Positions 10,589 to 43,293 of a stretch of 43,293 nucleotides of DNA are shown here, in pieces (position 1 is the first letter of the stretch; each line of letters begins with the position of its first letter). The stretch comes from Opitutales bacterium. Lineage in GTDB: Bacteria > Verrucomicrobiota > Verrucomicrobiia > Opitutales > JABSRG01. A model generated the notes under the pieces. The model made no database searches, had not been told where the DNA came from, and saw only the letters and a list, made by a program, of their open reading frames with translations. The stretch lies in NCBI GenBank assembly GCA_049599475.1, contig JBMYOQ010000035.1, positions 1 through 43,293 of the forward strand, written 5' to 3'. The position numbers and the translations under genes are program-made.

Positions 10589-10784
10589 TTTCGGGCCTGG
10601 CTACGCTTCGTTTTATTTGAAAACAATTCCAGCTTTTCAGCGCAAATTGCCAAGGATTGCTCAAGAAAATGCCTCAAACAGCGTATTTTCTGCCCCCGCG
10701 ACAGGGATTTTATCCAAATAATGTGCTAAACCTGCGCATTTGTTAAAAATCACCCTCGATTCCCCGAATTTTGTAGGTCCAGGA

Positions 10785-13700
10785 ATGAGCCTACGAAACC
10801 CCATCGGAGACCGGACAAAAAGAGCCCTCGTCTATCTCCAAACCCTAGCCCTTATTTTCACTTCGAGCCACCCGGTTCTCATCGCTAATCCTAGCGGCGC
10901 AACCGTAGTGTATGGCAATGCTGTATTCAACGACAACGGCCCAGAGCTGACCGTCCAACAAAACGGCCAACAGCTCATCATCGACTGGCAGGATTTCTCC
11001 ATCGATGCCGGCGAAGTCACACGCTTCGTTCAACCCTCTACGACAGCTTCAGCCCTGAATCGCGTAGTCTCGGGAAACCTTTCGGAGATCTACGGCCAAC
11101 TAGACGCCAACGGCGAGATTTTCCTGATCAATCCAAATGGTGTTATCATCGGTGAGAGCGCTCAGATTGATGCGGCATCCTTCACCGCATCTACCCTCGA
11201 CATCGAAAATACAGATTTCCTGGACGGCGGAAACAGGACATTTCGCGCCACGGGCACGGTCTCCGGACATATCATCAATATGGGCCGCATCGAAGCAATC
11301 AGCGGGGACATCACTCTGATTTCAGAAGTCATCACCCAATCCGGTGAACTCATCGCATCCCAAGGATCGGTTGATCTCGCAGCGGGCCGCGAGGTGATAG
11401 TCCAACCCGACAGCGATAAACGCATTTTCATCAGCCTCCCGAGCGACGAGGCCTCAATAGACAATACCGGATCCATCGAAGCTGCGCGCGCGGAAATCGT
11501 TGCCGCTCACAGCAATCCATACGCCCTGGCCATCAACCAAGACGGCGTCGTGCGCGCGACAGGGACACAAGCAGTCAACGGCGAAATCTGGCTCGTCGCA
11601 GACGGCGGCACAGTCGCCATGACAGGCCAACTCGACGCATCCAACGCAGACAGCTCAGGCGGAGACATCCTGGTAACGGGTTCCCAAACCGGCATTTACG
11701 ATGGCGCCCAAATCCGCGCGGACGGAGACGGCGCCGACGGCGGCCAAGTCCTCATCGGTGGAAGCAGACGCGGCACCGACGATTCTATTTTCCATTCCGA
11801 TCGCACCTACATCGCGGAGGGTGCTCAAGTATCAGTCGACGCTTCCGGCGCAGATAGCACAGCCGGCACCCTGATCGCCTGGGGGAATGAAACTCTACGC
11901 TCTTTTGGCCAACTCAGTGCCCGCGGCGCGGGCTACGCAAGTGGAGGCTTCATCGAAACCAGCGCCGGTTGGTTCGACCTGGGAAGCAGTGTGGCCGATG
12001 TGAGCTCCGATTTCGGCCAAAGCGGCGAGTGGCTCATCGACCCCTACAATATTGTAATCAATGATGGAGGCCTGGATGAATTTGGCGACACCACCAACCC
12101 TTTCGACAATCCAAATACCGACGACGCCCAGATCGACGTAGATACCCTCATTGCTGCCCTCACCAGCGGATCCGGAGTCACCGTAACCGTAGAAACAGGC
12201 GCGTCTGGCTCCCAGGATGGCGATATAACGTTTGCGGCAGATCTAGATTACAACGGGATCGGCACCGGAGACACCCTCTGGCTGCGTGCTGCCAACGACA
12301 TCCTATTCAATGCGGGCATCGCGATCACCGATAGTTCCGGAGCCGACGATAGCCTCAACCTCGTCTTTCAATCTGACTCGGATGGTTCGGGTGCGGGAGC
12401 CATCAGTACAAACGGGGCCACCACGCTATTCACCCAAGGTGGAGAAATAATCTTTTCCGGAGGCAATTACAGCACACTCGACGATTTGCGCACGCTCGGA
12501 ATGGCTCAAGGAAACCCTTCGCGAACCAACGGCATCTACATCCATGAGGCACGTTTCGACACCTCAGGCGGAAATGTCACCTTGCGCGGAAATGGGACAA
12601 CACAACACGGCGTAAAGCTCGACAACGACTCCTACATCCATACCGGCTCCGGCAACATCACGCTCTACGGCATCTCAAGTAGTGGAAACGGTGATAAAGG
12701 CGTGACCCTGGAAGGGGTCACCATCACCGCAAATGGAGGCGATCTCAACTTCACCGGCTTCGGACTCAGTAATAATAACAATCAAGATAAATTTGCACAC
12801 GGCGTAGATATAGCCGATGGATCATCGATCACTCTCACTGGAGATTCCACTTTCACCATCACGGGAACTTCCAGCCAGGCGTCAAACGATGACCAAAATT
12901 ACGGCGTCAACGTGTCGGGAAGCGGAACTACTATCTCTATTGAGAACGGAAACCTGGCAATCACGGGCACCGGCGGTCTCGATGTGGGTGGATACGGGAT
13001 TTATCTCGGAGACGGCGCCAGCATCCAATCCACCGGCACAGGCGACATAAGCCTCACAGGCACCAGCAACGGCACCTCCGAGGGCATCTATTCAAGCCAT
13101 ACGTCTGCATTCACTTTAGGCGGCGCATCCATGACCGGCGATATCTTCCTAAGCGCTGGCACCACTGGCGGAAGCGATAGCATACTTCTGGATTCCGATC
13201 TCAATATTCAGACCAGCGGATCCATTACACTCCAAAGCGAAACCGCGAGCGATACGATAGGCCTCGGAGATAGCGCAACAGGCACCTTAAACCTCGACGC
13301 CACCGAGCTCAGCACCCTCGCAGATGGCGCCGCCACCATCATTTTCGGCCGCACCGACGGCACCGGCAGTATCGATGTCGAGGCACTAACCTTCACCGAC
13401 GATGTGCTCATACAATCCGATACTGGCATCATCGACTTCGACGGCGCTTTCAGTGTCGGTTCAAACGACCTGGGGCTCGATACTGATGGCGCCATTACAC
13501 AAACCGGAGCGATCACCGCAGCCGGGATAGTCATCACCGGAAGCGGCGACCATTTCCTGGAAAATGCCAGCAACGATGCAGACACCATCGCCGGCAGTGG
13601 GGGAAATCTCGCCTTTGCAGACACCGACGATCTATCCATCGGAAGCGTCACCATCAATGGCACCACGACCAACGGCATCAATGTCGGAGCCAATAATCTC

Positions 13701-16700
13701 GCGCTAGCGACCGAAGGTGCTCTCACGCAAACCCAGGCTATAATTGCCTTTGGCTTGGGCTTGAGAGGCTCTGGCACCAAGACCCTAACAAATAGCTCAA
13801 ACGACGTAGACGAATTGGGGGCATTCGGAGGGGTACTAGAGTATGTTGACGCCGACGACCTCACCATAGCAAGAACCACCGTAAACAGCACCCTTCACGA
13901 CGCCCTAGAAGTTGTCGGAGACGTTACCATAACAGCCGGCGACGACCTTATATTCAGCAATGATAGCAATTTCGATGGAAACGGCAGCGGCAACACATGG
14001 TGGTTCCGCGCCTACGAGGACATTAACCTCAATGCGAATGACTCAATTTCGGATGGATCAGGTAGTGATGATTCCATTACAGTTGTATTTCAATCCGACT
14101 ATAATAACTCAGGAACTGGGGGCATCAACCTATCGAGCGATTCACTCATCTCGACAAATGGCGGTGAGGTAATCATGTCTGGAGGTAATGGCTCCACACT
14201 AGCAGATCTAAGAACAAGCGGCTTCGCAAGGACTGGAGCAAACAATAGTGGCCGTGGTTTTCGCACCGCTGGCGGTGATATAGACGCGGGCACGGGGAAT
14301 ATAACTATCCGAGGACAAGGAGATACCAACGATGGTATCTTCATTAACAGCGGTTCCAGCATATCCACCACCACCGGCTCTATCACAATCGTCGGAGACA
14401 GCAACAGCGACAACGATAACGGTATCGATATTGCAGGGGCGTCCACAATCACTTCTAGCGGCGGAATCGTTAGCATAACAGGCACGACAACTTCTGACAA
14501 TTCTGGAGGAAACCAGACTGCTCATGGTATCGAAATTTTTGGAGGGTCTACGATCAATCTTACCGGTACCGCAACACTCAGCATCGACGGTACAGGTAGC
14601 CAGCAGGTAAACGATGACCGGAACTACGGAATCTATCTCTATGGGACCGGAACAGGCATCTCTGTAGAAAACGGCGATATGGCCATCACAGGAACTGGCG
14701 GTGTAAATACCGAGAGCTACGGTATTTACTTAGGAGAAGATATTTCCATCGCCTCCACAGGAACCGGAAACATCACCCTTACCGGAACCAGTACTGCGGA
14801 GGCAGGCATCTACTCGGAAACGACTGCGGCATATACACTTGGAGGGGCATCCATGAGCGGGGATATAACTCTGATTGCAAACACCACGAGCGCTGGAGAC
14901 AGCATCGTGATCGACTCAGATCTCACCCTCCAAACTTCCAGCAACATTATATTCCAATCCGGAGTCGCCAGCGACACCATGGGCCTTGGAGACACCTCTA
15001 CTGGCTTGTTCAACCTGGATACCACCGAGCTCGGCACAATTGCGGACGGTGCGGCAACGATCATCTTCGGCCGCACCGATGGCAGCGGCAATATAGATGT
15101 CGAGACCCTCACCTTTACAGATGACGTATTGTTACAATCGAACACGGGTACAATCGATTTCGACGGAGCCATCAGCGTAGGAACAAACGACCTCGGACTC
15201 GATTCAGACGGAGCCATTACGCAAACCGGTGCTATCACTGCGGGTGGACTCGTAATTTCAGGTAGCGGCGATCATTTTCTGGAAAATAGCAGCAACGATG
15301 TAGACACCTTGGCAGCAACAGGTGGCAACCTTAGTTTCGTGGACTCGGACGGCTTCAATATCGGCAGTGTTACGATAAATTCGGCGACAACGAATGGAAT
15401 CGACGTAGGTTCAAATGATCTCAGCCTGGATTCAGACGGAGCCATTACACAATCCAGCGCGATAACCGCTGGCGGCCTCGTCATTTTGGGAAGCGGCGAC
15501 CACTTTCTGGAAAACACCAGCAACGATGTAGACACCATCGCCGGAAGCGGCGGCAATCTCGCCTTCGCAGATACAGATGATTTAGTCATCGGAAGCGTCA
15601 CCGTCAATAGCACCACAACCAATGGCATCAACGTTGGCGCGAACGATGTAGCATTCGACACAGCAGGCGCACTCACCCAAACGCAAGCAATCATCGGCGA
15701 CGAGCTTGGCCTTCGCGGCAACGGGACAAAAACACTTACCAACAGCTCAAACAATGTAGTCGAAATCGGAGCGATCGAGGGGTCTATCAACTATTTCGAT
15801 ACAGATGATCTATTAATCGGTCATACAACTATCAATACAACGACGCATAATGCGCTCGAAGTAATCGGCGATGTAACCATAACCTCAGGAGCCGAGCTAC
15901 AGCTCGGCAATGATAGCGACTTCGACGGTAACGGCAGCGGGAACACTTGGTGGTTCCGTGCGCATGAAGACATTCAATTTAATTCAGGAGATGTAATCTC
16001 TGACGAAACAGGCAGCGACGACTCCATTAATGTCTACCTCCAGTCAGATTACGACAACTCTGGAACTGGAGGTATCAACTTCGCAGGCGGCGCGGGCATC
16101 ACTACCAACGGCGGTGAAATCATCCTTTCGGGAGGCAACGGCGCAACAGCTGCAGACCTCCGCACAACCGGATTTGCTCGCCAAGGATCAAACAACAGCG
16201 GAAGAGGTATTCGTATGAGCGGAGCGACTCTGGACTCTGGCGCCGGCAACATCACGGTCCGTGGCCTCGGAGGGACAGGCTCAGGAATAAGGCTCCTATC
16301 AGGAGCCGATATATCTTCGACCACAGGATCCATCACCATAGTCGGCGATAGCGACAGCACTAACGACAACGGGATAAGCATGGATTCTTCAGCATCTATC
16401 TCATCTGCTGGAGGCGCCGTCAGCTTAACCGGCACTACCGATTCCGAAAATACGGGTGGCACCAAGACAGCCAACGGCATTTCAATCAGCGAGGGAACCA
16501 CAATTATCCTTACCGGTGCTTCAACACTCACCCTTGATGGCACCGCCAGCCAACAAGTAAACGACACGCGCAACTACGGTATTTATTTAAACGGCACTTT
16601 GGGCGCCGTCACCTTATCTGTAGAAAACGGCGATATGACAATAAACGGTGTAGGCGGCGTAAACTCCGAAGGCTACGGCGTGTATATCGGGGAAGGCTCT

Positions 16701-19700
16701 ACGGTTGCGTCGACGGGCACTGGAAACATAAGTATCACTGGCACAAGTACAACAGACGCCGGAATATACAGTGAATCAACAACAGCGGTGAGCATCGGAG
16801 GCGCCTCAACTTCGGGGGACATCACCTTTACGGCCAATACAACCAGTGCTGGAGACAGCATCATCCTCGACTCGGACATAACGATACAAACCTCTGGAAA
16901 TGTTGCCTTTCAATCGGGAGTCGCCAGCGACACTATGGGACTCGGAGACAGCGCTACGGGCCTTTTCAACTTAGACGCCACTGAACTCGGCACAATCGCC
17001 GACGGCGCCGCTAATATAATCTTCGGCCGCTCCGACGGATCCGGCGCTATCGACATAGAAGCCCTCACATTCACCGATGACGTCTTGATACAATCGGACT
17101 CAGGCACTATCGACATCGATGGCGCACTCAGCGTTGGCACCAACGATCTCGCCATCAGTAGCAATGCATCCCTTACCCAAAGCGCCGCAATCACTGCTGC
17201 TGGCTTACAACTCTCCGGAAGCGGCACAAAAATCCTTACCGACGCATCCAACGGTTTGGATACGCTTGCAGCGACAGGCGGAGAGCTATCCCTTACAGAT
17301 CTGGATGATCTCATTATCGGAAGCGTAACAGTCAACGGGACAACTCTAAACGGAATTAATCTCGACGCCAGCCAGGGACTACACCTAGAAACCGCTGGAG
17401 CCGCCACGCAGACGCAAGCGATTACTGCTACGAATTTAATCCTCAGCGGAACTGGCTCCAAGACACTTACCAACACTTCTAACGACATAGACGATCTTGC
17501 GGCATATGGAGGAAGTGTTGAATTTTCCGATACAGATGAGATCACCGTAAACAGTGTGACTGTAAACGGGACTACTGTCACGGGCTTGGTGCTTACAGGC
17601 GATAGCATCATAGATGCGCTGGGTGGAGACTTACGGATGTCTGCAGACAGCAATTACAACGGTACCGGAGCAGGCAATACACTATGGCTGCGCGCTTCCG
17701 ATGACATTCCGTTCGATGCCAACGTAAATATCTACGACAGCGCCGGATCGACCGAATCTCTATCAGTATATCTCCAATCAGATTCCGATGGCAGCGGAGA
17801 CGGAAATATAGACCTCGACACGGGCTCGAGCATTGAAAGCAACGGAGGCGAAATCATCCTATCTGGCGGCAATTATGCAACCCTGGCAGATCTGCGCAGT
17901 CTCGGGTCCGCACAGGGAGGTGTCGGAGCCCTGGGCGTTCAAGTAAACGGCACACTCAACTCTGAAACCGGAAACATCACCGCCCGCGGTACGGGTGGAA
18001 CTGGAGCAGGCGTATGGCTAAACGGCGCCACAGTCGACTCAACCACAGGCGACATCACAATCTACGGTACCGCTTCGAATAATTCAACGGGGATATTCCT
18101 ATCAAACGCAGCATCAGTGACTAGCGACGGCGGAGCCGTTTCGATCACGGGCATCGGGGACAGCGATAACCTCGGGGGCTCTACCTCCGCGCACGGCTTT
18201 AGTATTTATGATGCTTCAACCATAACACTGACAGGCGACTCAACTCTAGATATTTCTGGAACGGCCAGCCAGCAACTCAATGACACAAACAACATCGGTG
18301 TCAGAATTTCCGATACAGGGACAGCACTTTCAGTAGAAAACGGAGATATGACGATTACCGGAACCGGAGGATACAGTACAGTGGGTTACGGTATATTTTT
18401 CTCATCAGAAGCGAGTATCAGATCCACGGGCACCGGAGATGTGTATCTAGACGGAGTTAGCAGCGGAGACGAAAGAGGCATCTGGACGAATTCATCCACC
18501 ACCCTAACCCTCGGAGACGCCAGCATGACCTCCGACATTTACCTCACTTCGAGCACGACCAGTGGCACCGATGCCATTCGAATCGATTCAGACTTAACGA
18601 TTGATACATCTGGCACCGTCTACCTAAGACCTGGAGACACTACCACGACTATTGGGCTAGGCCCTTCAGCGACAGGAATTTTCAGCCTAAACGCCGGTGG
18701 ATTGGGAGTCATCGACGACGGGGTCACGGCGATTGTAATAGGGCGAACAGATAGCACTGCCAGTATGGACCTCCGAGCACTCACCTTAACCGACGATATC
18801 GTCTTACAATCCGGTTCCGGGAGTATCAATTTCGCTTCATCATTTAACGTGGGCACCAACTATCTTACGATCAATAGCGGAGGAGCCGTCACTCAAAGTG
18901 GCGCCATCACAGCCGCCGGACTCCAAGTGCTCGGAAGCGGAACCAAGACCCTCGACCACGCCTCGAACGCGATCGATGAAGTCGCAGGATCCGGAGGCGC
19001 ACTCGAGCTCTACAATTCCGGCGCTCTGGATCTCGGAGAAGTCACCGTAAACGGTGTGACCTCAACGGGACTTTCAATTTCAGGCGACACCCTTCTCACA
19101 GCAGCTGGGGGTGATTTAGATATTACAGAAGACTCCGACTACAATGGTACCGGGGCCGGAAATACAATGTGGCTGCGCGCGAGCGAAGTTATCAGGTTCA
19201 ATACCGCCAAAGACATTCGGGATAGTTCCGGTTCGGGAGACAGCATCAACCTCGTTTTCCAGTCTGACTACGATGGCGATGGTGAAGGCAGCTTCGATAC
19301 CAACGGCGTGACCAACATCAATACACAAGGGGGCGAGATCATTGTCTCTGGTGGGTCCGGAGCGACTCTCAACGATCTGCGGACGACAGGCTCTGCCCAA
19401 GGCTTGAGCGGAGACGCCTGGGGAGTTTACATGAATGATGCGCGCATTTACACCGAAGGCGGGGACATCACCATACGCGGAAACGGAAGTGTCCAGGATG
19501 GCGTAAAACTCAACGACGGCTCTATCCTGGACTCTGGCTCAGGCAGTATCACCATATACGGGACTACAGATGGTGCCGACGATACCGGCGTAGAGTTCGA
19601 GGGCGTGACGATCAACTCAAGCGGAGGCGATGTCTCCATAACAGGCTTCGGAGAAAGTAATAACAACAATACCGATCGATTCGCAAACGGGGTGTCCTTC

Positions 19701-21503
19701 AAGGACGGAACAACCGTGAACCTTACCGGAAACTCCACCCTCACTGTAAACGGAACAGCCAGTCAACAAGCTCTGGACGATCAAAACTACGGTATCGAAA
19801 TTTCAGGCACAGGAACGAGCTTATCAGTAGAAAATGGTGATATGAGTCTCACCGGAACAGGTGGCCTCGATGTCGGAGGCTATGGAATCTACTTTGGTGA
19901 TGGAGCCGCAATCACATCTACAGGCAGCGGAAACATCAACCTTTCCGGCACAAGCAACGGAGCTAGCGAAGGTATTTTTACAGACTCCAGCTCAACATTC
20001 ACATTGGGTGGCTCCTCAACGAACAGCAATATCACCCTAAGTACGGCGACTACAGGCGGTGCTGATTCCATATTACTCGATTCTGATCTCACAATCCAGA
20101 CTAGCGGCATCCTCACATTCCAATCGACCTCAACGACCGACACAATGGGACTCGGCGATTCCGCAACAGGCATCCTCAATCTAGATTCCACCGAACTCGG
20201 CACAATCGCCGACGGCACATCTTCCATTGTATTCGGTCGCAATGACGGTACGGCAGACATCGACATCGCTGCCCTCACGTTCACCGACAACGTAGTCATC
20301 CAAATCGACTCGGGCAATATCGACTTCGGCGGCACCTTTAATCTCGGCTCCAACAACCTCGAAATCAACACCTCGGGAAGCGTCACTCAATCCGCAGCAA
20401 TCAACACGGGGACCCTGACCTTAGGAGGTAATGGCACATTTACGCTGTCGAACACCTCAAACACCATCGACAGCCTTGGCAACGTAAGCCGCGGAGGCGC
20501 GCTTAGCCTCTACGATAGCGCAGGCGGTCTAAACATTAGTGGCACCATTGCGGGCACAACTAACAACGCAGTAACCATCCGCACCGTTGGCGACCTCACC
20601 TTGGACAGCGGAGCTTCCATCACAACAACTGGATCCGGAAACAACATCACCCTAGAAGCCGCAAGCGGAGCCTTTATCAACAACGCAGGCTCATCAGCAC
20701 TGAGCACCGATTCCAGATTCATCATCTACTCCCAAAATGCAGAATCGCCTCACAACAAAGGCGGCCTGATAGGAAGTGAACAGTATGAGACCGACTACGG
20801 GTCGGATCCAATCGCGACAGGAAATGTATTCTATTATTCGGACACTGAACCCGTAGAGGAAGCTCCTGAAGAAAACAGTGAAGAACCAGAGAGTCCCGGA
20901 GATTCTGAAGGCTCCGATGAAAACGAAACACCCACCGAGGACGACGTCTCAAATGAGCCTGAAAACCCATCCAATGACGAAGCTCCCTCTGAAGAAGAGA
21001 CTCCAAGCGAAAACGAAGATCAACCGGGTGATAACCTTTCAAACAATAACAATTCGACAGACCAGGAGGAACCGTCCACCGGGGAGAATAGCAGCCCATC
21101 CACCCAAGAAGAAGTCACTCCAGATGAAACTCCCAATACATCTGAATCAATAATTCAACTACAAGAGGTTGAAACCTTTATCAGCGAAGCATTTTTTCAG
21201 AACAACCAGAAGACCAGCCTCAGCCCTGCCCAACCATTGAGCGACACGCCTAGCGACACCCCAGAAAACGAGGAAGACTCTATAGATCCAAAATCAAATA
21301 CACCTCGCGAGACGACCCTTTCAGCACCTTCACCAAGTACCCCTGAAGCAAGCCCAGTTTCGAGCTCCAAAAATCCTGCAGAAAACAAAACTTACTTTGA
21401 AGACCGCCTTGATATCGAGATTCTTGAGGTATCCGCAAACGAAGAGATTCTCTATCCAATAGACGAGAATCTCAAAAAGAAGGAGAAAGAAGAAGAGCGC
21501 TAG
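10785..21503 (+). CDS. Filamentous haemagglutinin-like TpsA exoprotein (~3570 aa)
   Basis: TPS secretion domain (ANPSGATVVYG, IIDWQDFSI, ALNRV, IFLINPNG), a G/T/S/N/D-rich beta-helical body and an acidic tail. ATG 10785 is preferred over TTG 10740. Confidence 0.95.
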   Translation: MSLRNPIGDRTKRALVYLQTLALIFTSSHPVLIANPSGATVVYGNAVFNDNGPELTVQQNGQQLIIDWQDFSIDAGEVTRFVQPSTTASALNRVVSGNLSEIYGQLDANGEIFLINPNGVIIGESAQIDAASFTASTLDIENTDFLDGGNRTFRATGTVSGHIINMGRIEAISGDITLISEVITQSGELIASQGSVDLAAGREVIVQPDSDKRIFISLPSDEASIDNTGSIEAARAEIVAAHSNPYALAINQDGVVRATGTQAVNGEIWLVADGGTVAMTGQLDASNADSSGGDILVTGSQTGIYDGAQIRADGDGADGGQVLIGGSRRGTDDSIFHSDRTYIAEGAQVSVDASGADSTAGTLIAWGNETLRSFGQLSARGAGYASGGFIETSAGWFDLGSSVADVSSDFGQSGEWLIDPYNIVINDGGLDEFGDTTNPFDNPNTDDAQIDVDTLIAALTSGSGVTVTVETGASGSQDGDITFAADLDYNGIGTGDTLWLRAANDILFNAGIAITDSSGADDSLNLVFQSDSDGSGAGAISTNGATTLFTQGGEIIFSGGNYSTLDDLRTLGMAQGNPSRTNGIYIHEARFDTSGGNVTLRGNGTTQHGVKLDNDSYIHTGSGNITLYGISSSGNGDKGVTLEGVTITANGGDLNFTGFGLSNNNNQDKFAHGVDIADGSSITLTGDSTFTITGTSSQASNDDQNYGVNVSGSGTTISIENGNLAITGTGGLDVGGYGIYLGDGASIQSTGTGDISLTGTSNGTSEGIYSSHTSAFTLGGASMTGDIFLSAGTTGGSDSILLDSDLNIQTSGSITLQSETASDTIGLGDSATGTLNLDATELSTLADGAATIIFGRTDGTGSIDVEALTFTDDVLIQSDTGIIDFDGAFSVGSNDLGLDTDGAITQTGAITAAGIVITGSGDHFLENASNDADTIAGSGGNLAFADTDDLSIGSVTINGTTTNGINVGANNLALATEGALTQTQAIIAFGLGLRGSGTKTLTNSSNDVDELGAFGGVLEYVDADDLTIARTTVNSTLHDALEVVGDVTITAGDDLIFSNDSNFDGNGSGNTWWFRAYEDINLNANDSISDGSGSDDSITVVFQSDYNNSGTGGINLSSDSLISTNGGEVIMSGGNGSTLADLRTSGFARTGANNSGRGFRTAGGDIDAGTGNITIRGQGDTNDGIFINSGSSISTTTGSITIVGDSNSDNDNGIDIAGASTITSSGGIVSITGTTTSDNSGGNQTAHGIEIFGGSTINLTGTATLSIDGTGSQQVNDDRNYGIYLYGTGTGISVENGDMAITGTGGVNTESYGIYLGEDISIASTGTGNITLTGTSTAEAGIYSETTAAYTLGGASMSGDITLIANTTSAGDSIVIDSDLTLQTSSNIIFQSGVASDTMGLGDTSTGLFNLDTTELGTIADGAATIIFGRTDGSGNIDVETLTFTDDVLLQSNTGTIDFDGAISVGTNDLGLDSDGAITQTGAITAGGLVISGSGDHFLENSSNDVDTLAATGGNLSFVDSDGFNIGSVTINSATTNGIDVGSNDLSLDSDGAITQSSAITAGGLVILGSGDHFLENTSNDVDTIAGSGGNLAFADTDDLVIGSVTVNSTTTNGINVGANDVAFDTAGALTQTQAIIGDELGLRGNGTKTLTNSSNNVVEIGAIEGSINYFDTDDLLIGHTTINTTTHNALEVIGDVTITSGAELQLGNDSDFDGNGSGNTWWFRAHEDIQFNSGDVISDETGSDDSINVYLQSDYDNSGTGGINFAGGAGITTNGGEIILSGGNGATAADLRTTGFARQGSNNSGRGIRMSGATLDSGAGNITVRGLGGTGSGIRLLSGADISSTTGSITIVGDSDSTNDNGISMDSSASISSAGGAVSLTGTTDSENTGGTKTANGISISEGTTIILTGASTLTLDGTASQQVNDTRNYGIYLNGTLGAVTLSVENGDMTINGVGGVNSEGYGVYIGEGSTVASTGTGNISITGTSTTDAGIYSESTTAVSIGGASTSGDITFTANTTSAGDSIILDSDITIQTSGNVAFQSGVASDTMGLGDSATGLFNLDATELGTIADGAANIIFGRSDGSGAIDIEALTFTDDVLIQSDSGTIDIDGALSVGTNDLAISSNASLTQSAAITAAGLQLSGSGTKILTDASNGLDTLAATGGELSLTDLDDLIIGSVTVNGTTLNGINLDASQGLHLETAGAATQTQAITATNLILSGTGSKTLTNTSNDIDDLAAYGGSVEFSDTDEITVNSVTVNGTTVTGLVLTGDSIIDALGGDLRMSADSNYNGTGAGNTLWLRASDDIPFDANVNIYDSAGSTESLSVYLQSDSDGSGDGNIDLDTGSSIESNGGEIILSGGNYATLADLRSLGSAQGGVGALGVQVNGTLNSETGNITARGTGGTGAGVWLNGATVDSTTGDITIYGTASNNSTGIFLSNAASVTSDGGAVSITGIGDSDNLGGSTSAHGFSIYDASTITLTGDSTLDISGTASQQLNDTNNIGVRISDTGTALSVENGDMTITGTGGYSTVGYGIFFSSEASIRSTGTGDVYLDGVSSGDERGIWTNSSTTLTLGDASMTSDIYLTSSTTSGTDAIRIDSDLTIDTSGTVYLRPGDTTTTIGLGPSATGIFSLNAGGLGVIDDGVTAIVIGRTDSTASMDLRALTLTDDIVLQSGSGSINFASSFNVGTNYLTINSGGAVTQSGAITAAGLQVLGSGTKTLDHASNAIDEVAGSGGALELYNSGALDLGEVTVNGVTSTGLSISGDTLLTAAGGDLDITEDSDYNGTGAGNTMWLRASEVIRFNTAKDIRDSSGSGDSINLVFQSDYDGDGEGSFDTNGVTNINTQGGEIIVSGGSGATLNDLRTTGSAQGLSGDAWGVYMNDARIYTEGGDITIRGNGSVQDGVKLNDGSILDSGSGSITIYGTTDGADDTGVEFEGVTINSSGGDVSITGFGESNNNNTDRFANGVSFKDGTTVNLTGNSTLTVNGTASQQALDDQNYGIEISGTGTSLSVENGDMSLTGTGGLDVGGYGIYFGDGAAITSTGSGNINLSGTSNGASEGIFTDSSSTFTLGGSSTNSNITLSTATTGGADSILLDSDLTIQTSGILTFQSTSTTDTMGLGDSATGILNLDSTELGTIADGTSSIVFGRNDGTADIDIAALTFTDNVVIQIDSGNIDFGGTFNLGSNNLEINTSGSVTQSAAINTGTLTLGGNGTFTLSNTSNTIDSLGNVSRGGALSLYDSAGGLNISGTIAGTTNNAVTIRTVGDLTLDSGASITTTGSGNNITLEAASGAFINNAGSSALSTDSRFIIYSQNAESPHNKGGLIGSEQYETDYGSDPIATGNVFYYSDTEPVEEAPEENSEEPESPGDSEGSDENETPTEDDVSNEPENPSNDEAPSEEETPSENEDQPGDNLSNNNNSTDQEEPSTGENSSPSTQEEVTPDETPNTSESIIQLQEVETFISEAFFQNNQKTSLSPAQPLSDTPSDTPENEEDSIDPKSNTPRETTLSAPSPSTPEASPVSSSKNPAENKTYFEDRLDIEILEVSANEEILYPIDENLKKKEKEEER
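12246..20500 (+). repeat. Five long intragenic repeats of the TpsA gene
   Basis: The anchor motif [DN][YF][ND]GxGxG[DN]TxW[LF]RAx[DE]xI starts at 12246, 13968, 15918, 17652 and 19137. The end coordinate is approximate. Confidence 0.9.
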
Positions 21504-23132: not shown

Positions 23133-23516
23133 ATGCACATGGTTAGAGTAAACTTGAGCGACCTGAAAACACATCTGTCCGACTATGCACGACGGGTAAA
23201 AGCGGGTGAGTCCTTGATTATATGCGAGCGAAATAAACCGATCGCAGAGTTTAGGCCTTTCAACGAAAACAAGCCTTATTTCCAGGACAACGCTTCCTCA
23301 GAGACTCTATATGTAGCCGAAGATTCCTATCCACCTGAGTCCGAAGCGCTGATTTCGAGCGCACTCAAATATGGGAGTTTTGGAAGCAAACAGGAGGTCA
23401 TACAGAAGGCGCTCAGCGACTTCGTTCGCAAACATCGCCAAATCCAGATCCTCGAGCTGGAAGGTGCTGTCGATTACTACGACGACTACGATTACAAGGA
23501 GGCACGGCGCAAATGA
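23133..23516 (+). CDS. Type II antitoxin: Phd/YefM-like N-domain fused to a VapB-like C-domain
   Basis: The N-terminus VNLSDLKTHLSDYARRVKAGESLIICERNKPIA is Phd-type. The C-terminus LISSALKYG...SKQEVIQKALSDFVRKHRQIQILELEGAVDYYDDYDYKEARR is VapB-type. ATGA overlap with the toxin. Confidence 0.85.
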   Translation: MHMVRVNLSDLKTHLSDYARRVKAGESLIICERNKPIAEFRPFNENKPYFQDNASSETLYVAEDSYPPESEALISSALKYGSFGSKQEVIQKALSDFVRKHRQIQILELEGAVDYYDDYDYKEARRK

Positions 23517-23923
23517 AACGCTTCATCGCAGATACCTCAGTATGGTCGATTTTTCTCAGGCGTTCGAGTCCTGACGAATCAGAGCTCAAGGCTCAGTTAC
23601 GCGCCGCTATCCTTTCCGATGAAGTTCAAATGCTTGGCATCATCCGCCAGGAATGCTTGTCAGGCATCAAGGAGCACGCGCAATTCATTCGACTTAAAGA
23701 ATACTTAGATGGCTTTCCCGATCTCTTGGCCACTACAGAGGATCACCTCAAGGCCGCAGAGTATTGCAACACGTGCCGCAGGAAGGGTTTCCAGGGCGGA
23801 TTTGCAGATTTCCTTATCTGCGCTCAAGCGAATTCCGCTGGACTCCCTATACTCACCAAGGACAAGGATTTTCTAGAATACCAGAGAATACTACCAATAA
23901 GGCTTGTGGGGCAAGGAGCCTAG
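23513..23923 (+). CDS. vapC: PIN-domain toxin (VapC family)
   Basis: IADTSVW, IRQECLSG, ADFLICA and ILTKDKDF supply the acidic PIN residues. Confidence 0.93.
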   Translation: MKRFIADTSVWSIFLRRSSPDESELKAQLRAAILSDEVQMLGIIRQECLSGIKEHAQFIRLKEYLDGFPDLLATTEDHLKAAEYCNTCRRKGFQGGFADFLICAQANSAGLPILTKDKDFLEYQRILPIRLVGQGA

Positions 23924-36963: not shown

Positions 36964-37200
36964 CTCACGCGAAGACGCGAAGCGTAAATTGTGCAGGCTT
37001 TTCCGACTGTTAGCAGAGCGTCGTGCAGATAGCGACAGTTAACCGCAACCAATATGACTTGGCTTTAGTCAACTAAGCTAAAGATCATCACGCCCGCTGG
37101 CGCTCAAGCCCCAAAGACCCCAAGGAAAACAGCCTCATCTCTCACTGCAGTCAATCACTTTACAGCATTTACGCTTCGCGTCTTCGCGGCTTCGCGTGAG
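36964..37200. mobile_element. MITE-like element with inverted CTCACGCGAAG...CGTAAAT ends
   Basis: The left arm (36964-36989) and right arm (37167-37200) differ by one 8-mer unit. A related internal arm lies at 37088-37124. Confidence 0.7.
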
Positions 37201-38231: not shown

Positions 38232-38361
38232 GGTTTGGGTCTAATCTTGGACATCCGTGAATAGCAACAAAAACCTATCTAAAATCAGGTCACTCTGGGC
38301 TTAGACCCAGGGAATTGCCACTACTCCTTGCAGCAACGGTCAAGATGCCTTTATTGGGAGG

Positions 38362-38997
38362 ATGCAGGAATATACTCATATTCTTTGGGATTGGAACGGG
38401 ACTCTCTTGGACGACTCGCGCATTTGTGTGGACATCTTGAACACGGTTTTAGCGACACAGGAGATGGATCCGATCGCGCTCGAGACCTATCGCGAGATTT
38501 TCGAATTCCCGGTACATCGCTTTTATCGGAATCTTTCGAGCACGCTGGACGAGACGACACTCAAGGCGATGAGCAGCCAATTCGTGCATTCATATGAGAA
38601 GGTGTGGCGAGACTGTAAGTTGCACGGCGACGCCCTAGAGACTTTGTATCATTTTCAAAACTCCTCCGTTCGGCAGATCGTACTCTCAGCGAGTAATCAA
38701 GAAACGCTCGATGCCTGTTTAAATTATTTCGAGCTAAGTTCACTCTTCGAGAAAGTAATCGGTCAAGACAACTGCCATGCTCATGGGAAACTTGGAACTG
38801 CGCGCGAATGGTTGAGCGCAAGCGGTATCGAGCCCGCAAAAGTGCTCCTCGTCGGTGACACCTTACACGACCTAGAAATTGCCCAAGAGCTCGGCTTCGA
38901 TTGCGCCCTCTTCAGCCAAGGGCACAATTCCGAAGCGCGCCTCAAAGACGCCCACCCCTGGGTGATCGCCAGTCTCGGGCAGCTGAAAGCGGGGTAA
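38362..38997 (+). CDS. HAD family hydrolase (phosphoglycolate phosphatase-like)
   Basis: WDWNGTLLD motif I variant, VLSAS, GK and VGDTLHD. Confidence 0.92.
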   Translation: MQEYTHILWDWNGTLLDDSRICVDILNTVLATQEMDPIALETYREIFEFPVHRFYRNLSSTLDETTLKAMSSQFVHSYEKVWRDCKLHGDALETLYHFQNSSVRQIVLSASNQETLDACLNYFELSSLFEKVIGQDNCHAHGKLGTAREWLSASGIEPAKVLLVGDTLHDLEIAQELGFDCALFSQGHNSEARLKDAHPWVIASLGQLKAG

Positions 38998-38998
38998 A

Positions 38999-39128
38999 AA
39001 ATCTCAAATTTCAAATCCCAAAAGTTTGCGAATGACGGCCCACCCAGAGTGTTTACTTATTCGAGGCACCCGCAGCTCCAAGGTAAAATTTACTGCGCTG
39101 TATTTTTTGGGATTTGAGATTTGGGATT
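38999..39128. repeat. Inverted pair of heptamer (AAATCYC) repeat arms
   Basis: AAATCTC AAATTTC AAATCCC AAAA ... TTTT GGGATTT GAGATTT GGGATT flanking ~80 bp. Confidence 0.75.
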
Positions 39129-39155
39129 AAGGACGTTCCGCCTCGCGAAACGTCA

Positions 39156-40118
39156 TCAGCCCTCGGAGTCTTCTTCTTCGGACGCTTCTTCTTCAGGCAA
39201 GTGCGAGCGCGCTGTTTGAATCAATGCCTCCAAGCGCTCTTTAAAAGCCTTCTCCTCCTCATCGAGCTCTTCTTGCTGCATGTCGCCCACGTAGGTTTCC
39301 GCCTTGTCGATGATACCTGCAAGGAGTTCTGTCTCACCCATCTTCGTGAGCTGCTCATCGAGTTCGCCTACCATATATTCGATAAGCTCTTGGGACTGTT
39401 GCTTTCGCAGATCGGCCTCGCGCTCGGCTTCTTGAATTCGCAATGTGTCCCGGAAGATGAGGGCTGCGAAGACAAAGCAAACCACCGCGCCAACTCCGAT
39501 CAAAGTCCAGAAGATGCGCAGAATGCGTTCGTTACGCCTGCGAATTTCTTCGGCATAAGTCCGGCCAGCTATGACGAAACGAGATATGACTTCGGTCGGT
39601 CTCGGAAAATTAGCCTTCGCCCGGCGCAACCATGCCTCCGCATCCGAAAGAGCTTGCCCGCGTAACAAATGGTCAGGCCGCTCCGCACGAGAAAACCAAG
39701 TATCGGCGAGTTTCTCATATTTACGGAACTGCTCCAGGTGTTCAAAATCCGTTTTAAGAGCCCGCACTAAGCGTTCCATGCGCTCTGAACGTACGCTGTG
39801 GTCCCACAACTCAATCCATTGTATCGAATTTATCGATTCAGGAATCGCCGCAAAATCAATAGTCTCATCTATGACGACAGGAGATAGGCGAACCTTTTTT
39901 TCGACAGCGCTTTTCAATCCTTCCAAGAAAGCCTCATCCTTTAGAGACGCGATAGAGAGTATTCCAATTACGACATCCAGCTCCGCGAGGGCCTCGGGTT
40001 CTGTAATATCAGGAAAGCACAACTCTAAATCTTGATCGGACCTCAAGCGGTCGACCAAAAAGCAGTATTTCTCTTCATCCTCAGATACGGCTAAAAGGCC
40101 TGCTTTGATTTTACTCAT
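39156..40118 (-). CDS. Single-pass membrane protein with a degenerate TIR-like domain and a short acidic ectodomain
   Basis: TIR-like core DVVIGILSIASLKDEAFLEGLKSAVEKKVRLSPVVI...IPESINSIQWI; linker W...DHLLRGQALSDAEAW; TM ILRIFWTLIGVGAVVCFVFAALIF. Confidence 0.78.
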   Translation of the reverse strand: MSKIKAGLLAVSEDEEKYCFLVDRLRSDQDLELCFPDITEPEALAELDVVIGILSIASLKDEAFLEGLKSAVEKKVRLSPVVIDETIDFAAIPESINSIQWIELWDHSVRSERMERLVRALKTDFEHLEQFRKYEKLADTWFSRAERPDHLLRGQALSDAEAWLRRAKANFPRPTEVISRFVIAGRTYAEEIRRRNERILRIFWTLIGVGAVVCFVFAALIFRDTLRIQEAEREADLRKQQSQELIEYMVGELDEQLTKMGETELLAGIIDKAETYVGDMQQEELDEEEKAFKERLEALIQTARSHLPEEEASEEEDSEG

Positions 40119-42264
40119 ATTGAAAGAGGTTGGATTCTAATACGCTAAGGAAGGGATCAAAGCAGTCTTGAGTATCTAGGAATTCGCGAACTTCCAAGTG
40201 CAAATCAGTCGCCCGTCCCAGGATCTCACCTGATCGCACAAATGCACTCAAGGGCCGCGACAGCATTGGGTGGAATGTATCCTCGAGAACAAGCTCTCTT
40301 AATGAACCCGCAGCATGCTCACGTAAGAGCTCATCTCCCGCTCGGTGCGCGTACAAAAAGACCATAAACTTAGCCCGCGCATATTCACTTTTACTACTAA
40401 ATCTCAAAGATCCTTTCTTAGACTCCTCTTGAAATAATTGGTATAACTTCTCGTACTCTTTCCTAGGCGATTCATTATTCGCTATCCGCAAAATAATTCC
40501 CGCCACCCAGTACTTAAGGGCAATCGAATTTTCGGACCGAGCCATGTAGAGGCCTTCGTTATATATCTCGTCTATCCGCGCCTTCATGGGTGCCAACGCA
40601 CCTGCCCGACCATTTATTGAAGCAAGAATCATCTGGCCGACCAAATTATTCCCGAGAAACGTTGCTTCACGATAGGTCGAGGGGTCAAAACTCTCCAATT
40701 CCCTCAATGCCTGATAACACCGCTTTAATAAATTTTCTGCTTCCTCCAAACGTCCGGCTCCTAAATACGAAAGCGCCAAGCGTTGGTTCAGAATAGCAAC
40801 CATCCGATCGAAACCATAATCGGAGGTGTTCCAATCGAATCGATAGGGTCGATTTCTTTCTTCTGTGACAGAGTAATCTCCCTCTAGGATATCGTGTTTG
40901 GCAATTATACTTAGGGCGAAAAGGATCTGCGATTGTTCATCAATATCTGGGTCATCGAGGCTCGCGTAATACTCCTCCAATTCCTTAAAATATTGGACAG
41001 CTACACTCCGTTGCCCATCCTCCAAGTAATACCAAAGCAAATTATAGACTGCGTTGAAGTAGGTATGTTTCCACTGGTCTGAAATTTCACGATGCTTTTT
41101 GCAAATCTCATAGATCTCTAAGAGTTCGCCTCCGCCAGCATAGGGCCCCTCAAGGTGAACCTTCGCCTGGGCCACCCAAAACAAGGTCGCAGTCAAACTT
41201 AACTGATATACATCACCCTCGGGATAACGCTCAATTGCCATATCATCAATCAAGCGACATTTCTCGAGGATACCTAGCGCATCTTCTGGCTTACCGTATG
41301 CAAGGTTTACATCAGCAATCAAATGCCCCATGCGGGCATAATGTAAGTAATCATCACCAACAAAGTGATCGATAGAAACATTTTCGAAATACTGTACTAT
41401 TGGTTCGAGCGAATAAGATAATTGCTCAACCCTCCCGGTCTGTCGGAGTTTTTCAAATGCATCAATCAACAGGTAATCAACCAAGCCTTGCGCTTGCTCT
41501 TTACGCATATCAGCTTCAGCAAGAGAATCGTCGTATTGATTATTAAAATACACGGATAGCCCAAAAAGTCCCAGAGTCAAAACAAACAAACTGACATACA
41601 GAATCCTTCGGCGTGCACGACTCTCTTGTTGGCGTTCTCGCTGTTGCGCTTCGTGATCCTCGGATGCCTGCAGATAGGCCCGCGCAATAGGAAAACCAGT
41701 CTGGTTCAATCGCTCTGCCGCCTCGATGATGCGCTGCCCGCCCCGCAAGGCCTCTCCTTGGTATAAGTGGTCGACGGATTGATGGTGTTCCTCCCACCGT
41801 ATCGCCGAGAGATGTATGGAATGCAGCTCATTCAAGAACACCTTCTCTGAGGACAACTTGTTGGATATACGGCGAGCAAGGCTGTTAATGTCCGGACGCA
41901 ATACCCATCGATCGACAGCGAAAGAGCTCAAAATCGGCGACAAGGCTGTGGCTGGCATGTCCTCTGGTTCAATCACCCAGATGGTCAGCTGGTGCTCAAC
42001 CGCGGAACCAAGTTCAAAACGACACATCTCTGAACTTCCCGCATTCTCTGTATGCAGAAATAGAAACACTGGATGCTCGATGAGTGCTTTTTCAATAACA
42101 GCTCGCCACTCCTGCGTCGGCTCAATGCTCTCCATATCCATCCAGATATTGAATCCACGCCCAAGTAAGGACTCACGCAAACCCTCGGCTATTTTCAAAT
42201 CTTTGCGCGAATAGGATAAGAAAATACCAGGAAGTGAAGGATCATGTTGAACGCCAACCGACAT
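40111..42264 (-). CDS. TIR domain - TM - TPR-like helical ectodomain protein
   Basis: IFLSYSRKD, IWMD, W...IEKAL and SSEMCRFEL; TM ILYVSLFVLTLGLFGLSVYF; TPR-like helices such as LALSYLGAGRLEEAENLLKRC. Start is ATG 42264 or TTG 42285. Confidence 0.9.
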   Translation of the reverse strand: MSVGVQHDPSLPGIFLSYSRKDLKIAEGLRESLLGRGFNIWMDMESIEPTQEWRAVIEKALIEHPVFLFLHTENAGSSEMCRFELGSAVEHQLTIWVIEPEDMPATALSPILSSFAVDRWVLRPDINSLARRISNKLSSEKVFLNELHSIHLSAIRWEEHHQSVDHLYQGEALRGGQRIIEAAERLNQTGFPIARAYLQASEDHEAQQRERQQESRARRRILYVSLFVLTLGLFGLSVYFNNQYDDSLAEADMRKEQAQGLVDYLLIDAFEKLRQTGRVEQLSYSLEPIVQYFENVSIDHFVGDDYLHYARMGHLIADVNLAYGKPEDALGILEKCRLIDDMAIERYPEGDVYQLSLTATLFWVAQAKVHLEGPYAGGGELLEIYEICKKHREISDQWKHTYFNAVYNLLWYYLEDGQRSVAVQYFKELEEYYASLDDPDIDEQSQILFALSIIAKHDILEGDYSVTEERNRPYRFDWNTSDYGFDRMVAILNQRLALSYLGAGRLEEAENLLKRCYQALRELESFDPSTYREATFLGNNLVGQMILASINGRAGALAPMKARIDEIYNEGLYMARSENSIALKYWVAGIILRIANNESPRKEYEKLYQLFQEESKKGSLRFSSKSEYARAKFMVFLYAHRAGDELLREHAAGSLRELVLEDTFHPMLSRPLSAFVRSGEILGRATDLHLEVREFLDTQDCFDPFLSVLESNLFQYE

Positions 42265-42756
42265 ACCCTCAACACACCAAGCCAAACCTCGCCTACAGCA
42301 AATTTAAAAAACCTTATATAATGCCTTTTTCATCAAAAACACACGAATACTGACTCTGAATCCACGAAGAGTGCACTTAATAATAATTCAGTATCAATTA
42401 CACACCACTCAGCGGTGATGTTTCAACTGAGCCGATCGCCGCGGATGCTGGTTTTGATCCGCAGAATAAGCGGGTGGTCGCAGATTCGTGATCTGTGTTC
42501 TAACCTTGAATCAAATACTTTGAGAAATGGATACAAGCACTTCCGGTGGCAGCAAAGAGACCGGGCTCCTCGAAGAACCGGACCAATGGAAACCAATGAG
42601 CACGAACCTCTTGATCCAATTTTCTCAGCGCGCTTCAAATACTCGACTACTTTTATAAAAATTATTTGAAAAATAGCTAATTCTCTAACGTCTATAAGAA
42701 GAGCCAGCCTACGAGATTTCAGGTGGCTTAACTATAATCTCTTATCATTCTCTCAG

Positions 42757-43197
42757 ATGGGCCAATTCATCCAAAACATAAAGGTATACTTCAGTGACGA
42801 TGGCACTGAACTTCATCCGACTGTAGACAACGGCTTCGCCATTCACACCGAGGCTAAGGGTAAAAACGACGCCTTTGTCCTGAACTTTCTATGGGGCGCT
42901 AACGAATCTGCATGGATGTCTCCCGCATCCACGGGAAATCTTGCAGATTACACCATATCCATCGACCCGATTGATGTAGACTACGTTTACCGCGTGGAGA
43001 ATAGCACAGGCGTTCTCTCACCAGCAGGAGGCTTGGGTGGCACTACGATCCAAGGCCCTCGAATCGTTATCCCAGGCATTCCAAGCGGATGGGACGGTAT
43101 CGATTTCGAATATATCCTCCGCATCACCGGGAATGCTAATGCTGGCAGTCGCTGGGGGATCCTTGATCCACGAGCCCGCCTGAATTGGGGTAAATAA
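42757..43197 (+). CDS. Hypothetical small beta-rich protein with a C-terminal Asp-Pro motif
   Basis: 146-aa ORF with no signal peptide and a beta-strand pattern, ending FEYILRI...ILDPRARLNWGK. Confidence 0.75.
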   Translation: MGQFIQNIKVYFSDDGTELHPTVDNGFAIHTEAKGKNDAFVLNFLWGANESAWMSPASTGNLADYTISIDPIDVDYVYRVENSTGVLSPAGGLGGTTIQGPRIVIPGIPSGWDGIDFEYILRITGNANAGSRWGILDPRARLNWGK

Positions 43198-43293
43198 TTA
43201 ATACTCGAGTTAAAAACAGGACACCTCTCGCATCCGGGTACTAGGGGCTGTCTTCAAATAAATCGATAAAAGCCTTGTACTATTATGGCATGG

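Follow-up and report, generated by a model that had tools for sequence, protein, structure and literature searches.

A putative two-chain membrane receptor with complementary TIR halves, and a candidate Asp-Pro partner, in an Opitutales bacterium

In the enzymatic TIR systems that most resemble the locus described here, the active site is shared between subunits. For SpbK, a composite site is described in which the BB loop and the catalytic Glu come from one surface (TIR-A), and strand betaD, the DD loop, strand betaE and helix alphaE come from another (TIR-B) (PMC12847820). For TIR-SAVED, it is reported that a protein without its Glu revives a partner unable to multimerise, and that a dimer is enough for activity (10.1101/2022.05.04.490601). 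Both systems consist of soluble proteins that form homo-oligomers and open-ended filaments, built from subunits contributing BB loop/Glu and betaD-betaE-alphaE and activated by proximity. The window analysed here is the whole 43,293-nt contig JBMYOQ010000035.1 (contig C35) of an Opitutales bacterium (assembly GCA_049599475.1; the source genome, G000), and its last 4 kb carries two overlapping genes for membrane TIR proteins together with a small gene for a predicted beta-sandwich protein. As in SpbK and TIR-SAVED, there is a TIR_2-type domain with a catalytic Glu, and a composite, proximity-activated site is proposed; unlike in those systems, the two surfaces lie on two membrane proteins with a sensor predicted to be outside. 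In particular, profile comparisons find that in this genus two TIRs have decayed in complementary halves, the long chain keeping the predicted TIR-A surface and the short chain the predicted TIR-B surface.

The genes and the two retained halves are as follows.

40111..42285, minus strand: long-chain gene, encoding a TIR domain, a helical linker, a single transmembrane (TM) segment, a juxtamembrane helix and a TPR-like ectodomain, 724 residues from a TTG start
39156..40118, minus strand: short-chain gene, encoding a pseudo-TIR, a linker, a TM segment, a juxtamembrane helix and an acidic tail, 320 residues
40111..40118, minus strand: 8-nt overlap of the long-chain stop with the short-chain start
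42757..43197, plus strand: gene for a predicted beta-sandwich protein, 146 residues without a signal peptide, Asp137-Pro138 near the C-terminus; a distant, DP-EP/SO1698-like candidate partner
41989..42225, minus strand: N-terminal half of the long-chain TIR (betaA, BB loop, alphaC), predicted TIR-A surface; 61.8 bits with an N-half profile, -1.3 bits with a C-half profile
39744..39890, minus strand: C-terminal half of the short-chain TIR, residues 77-125, predicted TIR-B surface; 47-63% identity to five homologues

An earlier note, made from the sequence alone, had placed three genes at these positions, two of them sharing 8 nt, and both the genes and the overlap hold. The overlap reads ATGAGTAA on the minus strand, and the long and short genes also overlap in a genome of the same genus (G001) and in one of the same family (G003), suggesting that the two genes may be translationally coupled. 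An alternative long-chain start, an ATG at 42264, gives 717 residues, equal to the length of the database protein.

On the 122 positions of the Pfam profile TIR_2 (PF13676), the long chain matches strongly at positions 1-84 (E 2.3e-13; 51.1 bits versus a cut-off of 28) and its G001 counterpart at positions 2-87; the window's short chain matches weakly (E 0.0047), at positions 46-121 only. Five short chains cover positions 46-121, 46-120, 52-115, 50-121 and 40-120, one more (P0006) has no match, and both chains of G003 are near-complete (2-110 and 1-121). Hidden Markov models (HMMs) of each half domain, built from an alignment of 111 intact TIR domains split just after the catalytic Glu, separate the chains further. 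The long chains of G000 and G001 score 61.8 and 65.3 bits with the N-half and -1.3 and -0.2 bits with the C-half, while six short chains score 0.3-5.4 bits with the N-half and 16.1-30.4 bits with the C-half (1.1 and 30.4 bits for the window's own); the G003 pair retains both halves, at 70.3/30.4 and 80.6/35.3 bits (N/C).

The same division is seen in individual residues. Glu91 of the long chain (codon 42013-42015), named in the earlier note as the residue to mutate, stands at the catalytic position and is invariant in alignment A5, where it is numbered E84; the Glu, the betaA motif and the BB loop are retained in all three long chains. The catalytic-position Glu and the betaA motif are missing from all six pseudo-TIR short chains and present in the short chain of G003. 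Among the short chains, identity to the window's own is 13-27% over residues 1-45, compared with 45-70% over residues 77-125, the TM segment and the juxtamembrane helix; Ile99, Gln100 and Trp101 are conserved betaD-betaE residues of the short chain. The claim that both chains carry an intact TIR is overturned on both sides: neither the Glu nor the betaA motif is present in the short chain, and the TIR_2 match of the long chain stops after two thirds of the profile, so that in G000 and G001 the canonical betaD-alphaE half does not lie in the same chain as the Glu. This complementary decay would give a reason for having two chains. Because TIR NADases build their site from two surfaces and each chain keeps one, the two chains most likely make up an enzyme that works only as a heterodimer and is unable to grow into a filament; with neither chain having both surfaces, output would be bounded.

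Although conserved, the two-chain pair is rare. Among 61 genomes searched, G001 and G003 have a full-length long chain with an adjoining short chain, and a short-chain profile matches 7 of 401 genomes of the order at E<=1e-8, with at most five candidates scored per genome; among the order genomes, the pair is present only in G000, G001 and G003, which are three of the seven genomes of the family. Across 1.84 billion representative proteins, four further full-length pseudo-TIR short chains and one of the G003 type rank on top, followed by thousands of generic TIR-linker proteins. The six full-length pseudo-TIR short chains have 317-324 residues, with 41-51% identity to the window's where compared, and form a clade with support of 100/100 in a tree of 36 rows, in which the three long chains form another (98/93). 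The short gene as a decaying duplicate was considered and ruled out: six conserved full-length homologues in a supported clade indicate that it is maintained. Other searches added little. A word-index protein search with the long chain returned only the chain itself, and with its profile generic TIR/TPR matches; the short-chain profile confirmed 0 of 176 metagenome candidates, found one locus in a scan of genome contigs, and gave nothing useful in a PDB sequence search.

The two chains are homologous (22% identity over 233 columns, E 2e-8) and are paralogues, both carrying the W..DHL(L/Y)xGxAL linker and the juxtamembrane helix. Of the single architecture that the earlier note ascribed to them, the linker, the one TM segment, the juxtamembrane helix and the homology stand, and the shared intact TIR does not. 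The segments concerned are listed here.

41548..41604, minus strand: long-chain TM segment, residues 228-246, from hydropathy; preceded by an Arg cluster
40114..41529, minus strand: long-chain juxtamembrane helix and TPR-like ectodomain, residues 253-724, predicted periplasmic, from hhalign and an ectodomain HMM
39453..39509, minus strand: short-chain TM segment, residues 204-222, from hydropathy; 53-70% identical across homologues

Each chain has one strongly hydrophobic segment (Kyte-Doolittle 2.49 in the short chain, 2.09 in the long). The Arg clusters noted before each segment are confirmed as a bias of Lys/Arg on the N side over the C side, 5 vs 3 for residues 204-222 and 6 vs 1 for residues 228-246, and the N-side excess is seen in all six chains of the three pairs, supporting a topology, drawn from hydropathy and charge counts, in which the TIR would be cytoplasmic (N-in) and the TPR domain outside. 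For the TPR-like helices, the TPR_12 match is weak (E 7e-5, below the cut-off), and hhalign of A5, an alignment that takes in one outside TIR-TM-TPR protein, against the class ectodomain alignment A7 gives a probability of 99.3% over 328 columns. Further, an HMM from 61 distant ectodomains detects only the two window genes among all G000 open reading frames (ORFs), at E 5e-7 and 0.0036. About 95 residues lie between TIR and TM, and neither chain has a Pfam match to an NTPase family. In itself the TIR-linker-TM layout is widespread, with 3457 representatives at E<=0.001; the unusual features are the pairing and the complementary decay. Overall, the notion of a receptor with a co-receptor is supported by the conserved adjacency in G000, G001 and G003, the predicted N-in topology and the complementary halves.

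The long chain also belongs to a wider class of receptors. Four weaker matches among the order genomes are kinase-TM-TPR or TIR-TM-TPR proteins with the same juxtamembrane motif, and immediately downstream of each lies a small ORF whose product has Asp-Pro close to the C-terminus. A profile of these four seed ectodomains yielded 19 genome loci and the best 80 of 355 confirmed metagenome matches; 9 of the 99 loci, where the receptor was cut or fewer than 450 bases lay downstream, were dropped, and the other 90 hold 86 unique receptors. Defining a partner as an ORF that starts -45 to +250 from the receptor stop, 77 of the 86 have a small Asp-Pro ORF downstream, with one to three candidate ORFs offered per locus, versus a background of 97 in 3574 G000 ORFs; among these 77 are the four seeds and some four calls that are doubtful (L040, L051, L088 and L090). 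By output domain, partners accompany 45 of 46 kinase receptors, 18 of 24 TIR receptors and 14 of 16 with other or truncated outputs; of the nine unpartnered receptors, inspection by eye shows a look-alike truncated at the contig end for two and a His-Pro for one. A strict motif chosen after the data were seen, Gly-hydrophobic-hydrophobic-Asp-Pro within 30 residues of the C-terminus, is carried by 57 of the 77 partners and by 3 of 3574 G000 ORFs. The receptor-partner class is widespread, in kinase and TIR forms, in Opitutales and metagenomes, but its receptors are single chains with the partner directly downstream, unlike the window's pair. All 69 unique class receptors tested carry a segment with hydropathy >=1.6, and in 62 of them more Lys/Arg lie N-terminal of the TM, with seven ties. 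No truncated second chain was found in the 97 loci with a juxtamembrane match, in a set where 52 of 99 had 1.5 kb downstream.

A profile of 69 partners, with no window sequence in it, matches the SO1698 structures of Shewanella oneidensis 3NJI and 3NJH over their full length (E 0.002 and 0.004), with the Asp-Pro motifs of profile and structures in register. Pfam DP-EP (PF08985) matches 1 of the 69 (15.6 bits versus a cut-off of 25), and PADLOC and NCBIfam find nothing meaningful among them. SO1698, reportedly self-cleaved at Asp-Pro, in line with the titles of its PDB entries, is a small beta-sandwich with a C-terminal Asp-Pro, grouped here with the MakD/PixA fold; the literature searches made found no link of this self-cleaving fold to a receptor. 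Most class partners lack a signal peptide: a crude scan flags 7 of 77, of which four (L098, L124, L125 and L127) are leader-like by eye, with signal- or lipoprotein-like leaders. The ectodomain profile confirmed 0 of 47 viral candidates, and two receptor queries returned 22 and 2 plasmid records. At one locus (L132:138-7309), a separate small partner accompanies each of two TIR-TM-TPR receptors in tandem, and one of these partners ends in Asn-Pro; after them lies a membrane protein with no Pfam match and a SLOG-like start. A SLOG protein as a general neighbour of the class was rejected, as three queries over the 18 TIR loci with 1.5 kb downstream recovered only the L132 query itself. Elsewhere, by inspection, genes resembling extracytoplasmic function (ECF) sigma factors (L035:3511-3837 and L036:4751-5353) flank kinase-TM-TPR receptors with Asp-Pro partners, suggesting a transcriptional output for the kinase branch.

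The beta protein of the window may be such a partner. It is 67% identical in G001, exceeding the conservation of either chain, and its gene there is co-oriented, 127 bases upstream of the long chain. It is one of the three G000 ORFs with the strict motif, and its Asp137-Pro138 is invariant in alignments A10 and A12, whose partners were chosen for having an Asp-Pro. The Asp-Pro follows an aromatic-led beta hairpin and aligns with that of SO1698 through the class profile; Glu118 sits where many members have a Lys before the last aromatic strand. With HMMs built without it, the beta protein ranks 2nd of 3574 on the C-terminal model and 12th on the full model, neither significantly. Similarity in the Atlas puts clusters bearing DP-EP/pNTSase1 first (0.86-0.88), a lead only, in which no alignment of this analysis was used. 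Structurally, a first model from two sequences, with a predicted local distance difference test (pLDDT) score of 41, was too poor to search and had no clear match; the partner alignment raised the score to 70, and the best fold match of this partly circular model is SO1698 (Z 8.4, root-mean-square deviation 3.0 over 109 residues), with MakD tied at 7.9, alongside a Foldseek match to the SO1698-type fold at E 6.6e-4. Like SO1698, it would be a small beta-sandwich with a C-terminal Asp-Pro; it differs in falling below the Pfam cut-off, in an identity of about 6-10%, and in being tied to a receptor gene.

Several results weigh against this assignment. The partner HMM misses the beta protein (4.7 bits, E 1.2), a genome search with an alignment that contains it does not detect it, Pfam DP-EP does not match it, hhalign reaches only 13.7%, over 38 columns, and an HMM of the TIR-partner subset ranks it 528th of 3574. 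No beta gene was found in G003, where the pair is present, and the protein lacks a signal peptide, so that, like most class partners, it would need non-classical export or release on damage or lysis to reach the periplasm. Other searches were silent or uninformative. PHROGs and Pfam gave no match, a word-index search one homologue only, plasmids none, and PDB sequence searches with the beta protein and one partner nothing useful; PF20301 and PF20016 had no match, one of these two runs being uninformative, and PF08985 had none across 301 genomes of the phylum, where the controls were likewise silent. Modelling the long ectodomain in complex with the beta protein gave a score of 0.00 in two runs in which the beta fold was uncertain, and this weighs neither for nor against the link. 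Overall, homology to the class partners appears quite probable, whereas a role as ligand is about an even call. The link to an Asp-Pro gene that the earlier note drew is thus sustained by the class and by co-location in G001 and is weak by sequence score, and its divergent orientation, present in G000, is not conserved, as the gene lies upstream on the same strand in G001; similarly, co-occurrence in other genomes extends to the pair in G001 and G003 and to the beta gene in G001 only. Upstream of the pair, G003 has a DUF5916 gene and a C39-peptidase ABC exporter (L016:10961-15343, minus strand). A peptide sent out by this exporter could be an alternative ligand; no precursor for it was identified in G003.

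Taken together, the locus is read, with about even confidence, as an inner-membrane receptor of two single-pass chains between which one TIR enzyme is split. The periplasmic TPR domain of the long chain would bind the cognate Asp-Pro protein or its self-cleavage product, and binding would bring the chains together through their TM and juxtamembrane helices. In the cytoplasm, TIR-A (BB loop and Glu91) would come from the long chain and TIR-B (betaD-DD-betaE-alphaE) from the short chain, creating one composite NAD+ site per heterodimer. With neither chain holding both surfaces, there would be no filament and a bounded output, which would fit a diffusible signal of the ADP-ribose (ADPR) type for a receiver encoded elsewhere better than a lethal NAD+ depletion. 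Candidate triggers are damage, pH and lysis of kin. The fuller proposal, that an obligate heterodimer with a split site is switched on from outside by a leaderless, self-cleaving Asp-Pro protein as a private alarm for damage or kin lysis, as one branch of an undescribed ligand-receptor class where kinase and TIR outputs alternate over a shared TPR sensor and every receptor has an Asp-Pro ligand of its own, is tentative. A role in defence is possible but unsupported, because there is no evident defence island and most class members signal through kinases. Against the split-site reading, loss of the C-half in the long chain is based on two sequences (G000 and G001), the long partners of four short chains (P0004-P0007) lying outside the comparison; that chain diverges throughout (its linker is about 20% identical), so that the C-half is perhaps remodelled rather than lost; no effector is linked to the locus; and the G003 short chain is a long unresolved branch that the tree does not place as the orthologue of the pseudo-TIR clade.

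Other explanations read the same features differently. The short chain could be a brake or decoy, a dead paralogue that binds the long chain and blocks its self-assembly until a signal removes the short chain; it has no sensor domain, its Glu and betaA motif are gone in all six homologues, and one source describes paired pro- and anti-death paralogues as a known regulatory device (PMC8195603). However, a brake needs a long chain active alone, and it is there that the typical TIR-B half is lost, while an origin as a decoy sits badly with the complete, Glu-bearing TIR of the G003 short chain; this explanation is rather unlikely. Departure of both TIRs from the consensus would also suit non- or weakly enzymatic scaffolds that recruit a cytoplasmic adaptor, as in animal Toll-like receptors, or a long chain active alone with a remodelled C-half, beside which the short chain would be a structural co-receptor. 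Non-lethal outputs predominate in the class (46 kinase versus 24 TIR among 86), and no effector adjoins the pair; but none of the three long chains has lost the Glu, the betaA motif or the BB loop (62-70 bits), and it is the two surfaces forming the composite site that have been retained, making this account similarly improbable.

A further possibility is that the beta gene is a passenger or relic with a chance or vestigial Asp-Pro likeness, and that the pair senses something else. The lack of a significant HMM link to the partners, the absence of a beta gene from the G003 searches, its different orientation in G000 and G001, and a probable insertion-sequence end 38 bases beyond its stop would agree with this; yet its 67% identity in G001 directly upstream of the long chain, its place among the three strict-motif ORFs and second on the C-terminal HMM, and, as a lead only, the Atlas clusters speak for a partner, and a passenger is quite unlikely. 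Finally, the hydrophobic helix might not cross the membrane, leaving a cytoplasmic or membrane-attached complex with the beta protein as a co-factor or self-guard in the TPR groove. This would accommodate the lack of signal peptides in the beta protein and in the majority of class partners, and many TIR-WD40 proteins have this helix after the linker too; the hydropathy of all 69 class receptors, the N-side charge bias and the four leader-bearing partners point outside instead, and such a complex is very unlikely.

The split-site receptor also differs from the systems that have names. Thoeris types I-XI have, like the long chain, a TIR with a catalytic Glu and a possible ADPR-type signal, but with an adjacent effector (SIR2-SLOG, Macro-TM, caspase, SLATT and others); the membrane-spanning two-chain sensor and the Asp-Pro partner also set the locus apart, and 29 candidate types in the supplementary tables of the Thoeris source may bear on novelty (10.64898/2025.12.03.692087). 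No such effector adjoins the pair in G000 (one side unseen), G001 or G003: Pfam places HAD and ROK genes on its left in G000, the G003 neighbours are transposase, DUF5916 and C39-ABC genes, and by inspection none is recognised among the ORFs of G001. PADLOC ThsB and NCBIfam ThcB4 match only the long chain's TIR, far below cut-off (ThcB4: 45.4 bits versus 220, over an 80-90-residue TIR part), and Thoeris membership was rejected for lack of an adjacent effector and this partial match. Avs or nSTAND NLR-like membership was likewise rejected, no STAND NTPase lying between TIR and repeats in either chain. The earlier note had seen no STAND, cyclase or ThsA gene, and none of these families occurs in the three proteins and three flanking proteins scanned, the far side of the beta gene being unseen; its view that no named system fits also holds across Thoeris, Avs and animal Toll-like receptors. 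Of the E. coli systems TIR-I to TIR-IX, some have two genes that are both needed and some have TM or TPR domains, and the section describing them mentions neither a pair of TIR-TM chains holding complementary halves nor an Asp-Pro partner (PMC11350192). The literature searched lists no description of this architecture or of the receptor-partner class, within a coverage of listings and abstract starts that leaves out subscription papers, and the two-chain split-site form, rare and the most striking feature of the locus, is provisionally regarded as new to it.

Animal Toll-like receptor heterodimers do present two single-pass chains, a repeat sensor outside, TIR domains inside and a dimer-driven output. 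Their leucine-rich repeats are N-terminal and their TIR C-terminal and non-enzymatic, whereas here the TPR is C-terminal and the TIR, of the enzymatic type, N-terminal; the Toll-like label given earlier holds as an analogy only, with no homology outside the TIR. The processed protein ligand of Toll, Spaetzle, offers a similar analogy for the Asp-Pro partner.

Receivers of a TIR signal in trans were also considered. On G000 contig C1, L140:1510-2520 (plus strand) encodes a SLOG (STALD) protein that stands alone, carries three or four TM-like segments and has a weak ThsA match, and this unlinked protein is a possible receiver in trans; with this query the gene was not found in the six other genomes of the family, and it therefore cannot be a general receiver. 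On contig C29, a second membrane TIR (L017:5373-7358, minus strand) joins TIR_2 to an SBP_bac_8 periplasmic solute-binding domain and adjoins a 767-residue membrane protein of no Pfam or PADLOC family. Homologues of the latter occur in exactly the same three of seven family genomes as the TIR pair (L017:7481-9784, minus strand; L146:4617-6974; L147:3839-5923). As a trans effector it was set aside and kept as a lead only: those of G001 and G003 lie in loci with reverse-transcriptase- and FGE-sulfatase-like genes, and it does not match the L132 neighbour. By inspection, the reverse-transcriptase-like gene and several FGE-sulfatase-like genes suggest a diversity-generating retroelement.

The pair lies among housekeeping genes. 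The contig stops 96 bases past the beta gene, leaving that flank unseen, in a repeat:

43235..43293, strand not assigned: contig-end repeat, common to 11 other contig ends of G000

Read depth there is 347 in the last bin versus 25, and the repeat is probably an insertion-sequence end that breaks the assembly; a connection with the flipped beta gene is possible. Signals for an inversion boundary, a promoter or a terminator did not rise above chance. One contig from the possible, not independent, source run spans 38300-43268 without differences, and a second sequencing study covers pieces of all three genes, with nothing bridging 42533 to 42931.

Elsewhere in the window, a 3587-residue ORF (10740-21503, plus strand) has no Pfam match at E<=0.001 and lies downstream of a 1090-residue ORF with one Sel1 match and a prolyl oligopeptidase gene. 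A Phd/VapB-like antitoxin and PIN toxin pair occupies 23133-23923 (plus strand), and a 669-residue ORF without a Pfam match lies in a low-GC stretch (0.40-0.45) at 2057-4066 (minus strand). Intergenic inverted-repeat elements at 36964-37200 and 39000-39128 have arms of 22-24 nt set 177 and 81 nt apart; the former has 25 blastn matches in the genome, itself included, and resembles a repetitive extragenic palindromic element (REP) or a miniature inverted-repeat transposable element (MITE).

The enzymatic TIR systems in the literature examined are homo-assemblies with both halves in every subunit. A split pair, if true, would confirm the composite-site model by evolution; it would also show a way for cells to limit TIR output, with a single site per dimer, and would provide a two-component tool for the surface that sets the product, with the G003 pair, both TIRs intact, as a ready comparison. 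Moreover, TM-TPR receptors and Asp-Pro proteins come almost one to one, which suggests a role for the self-cleaving fold.

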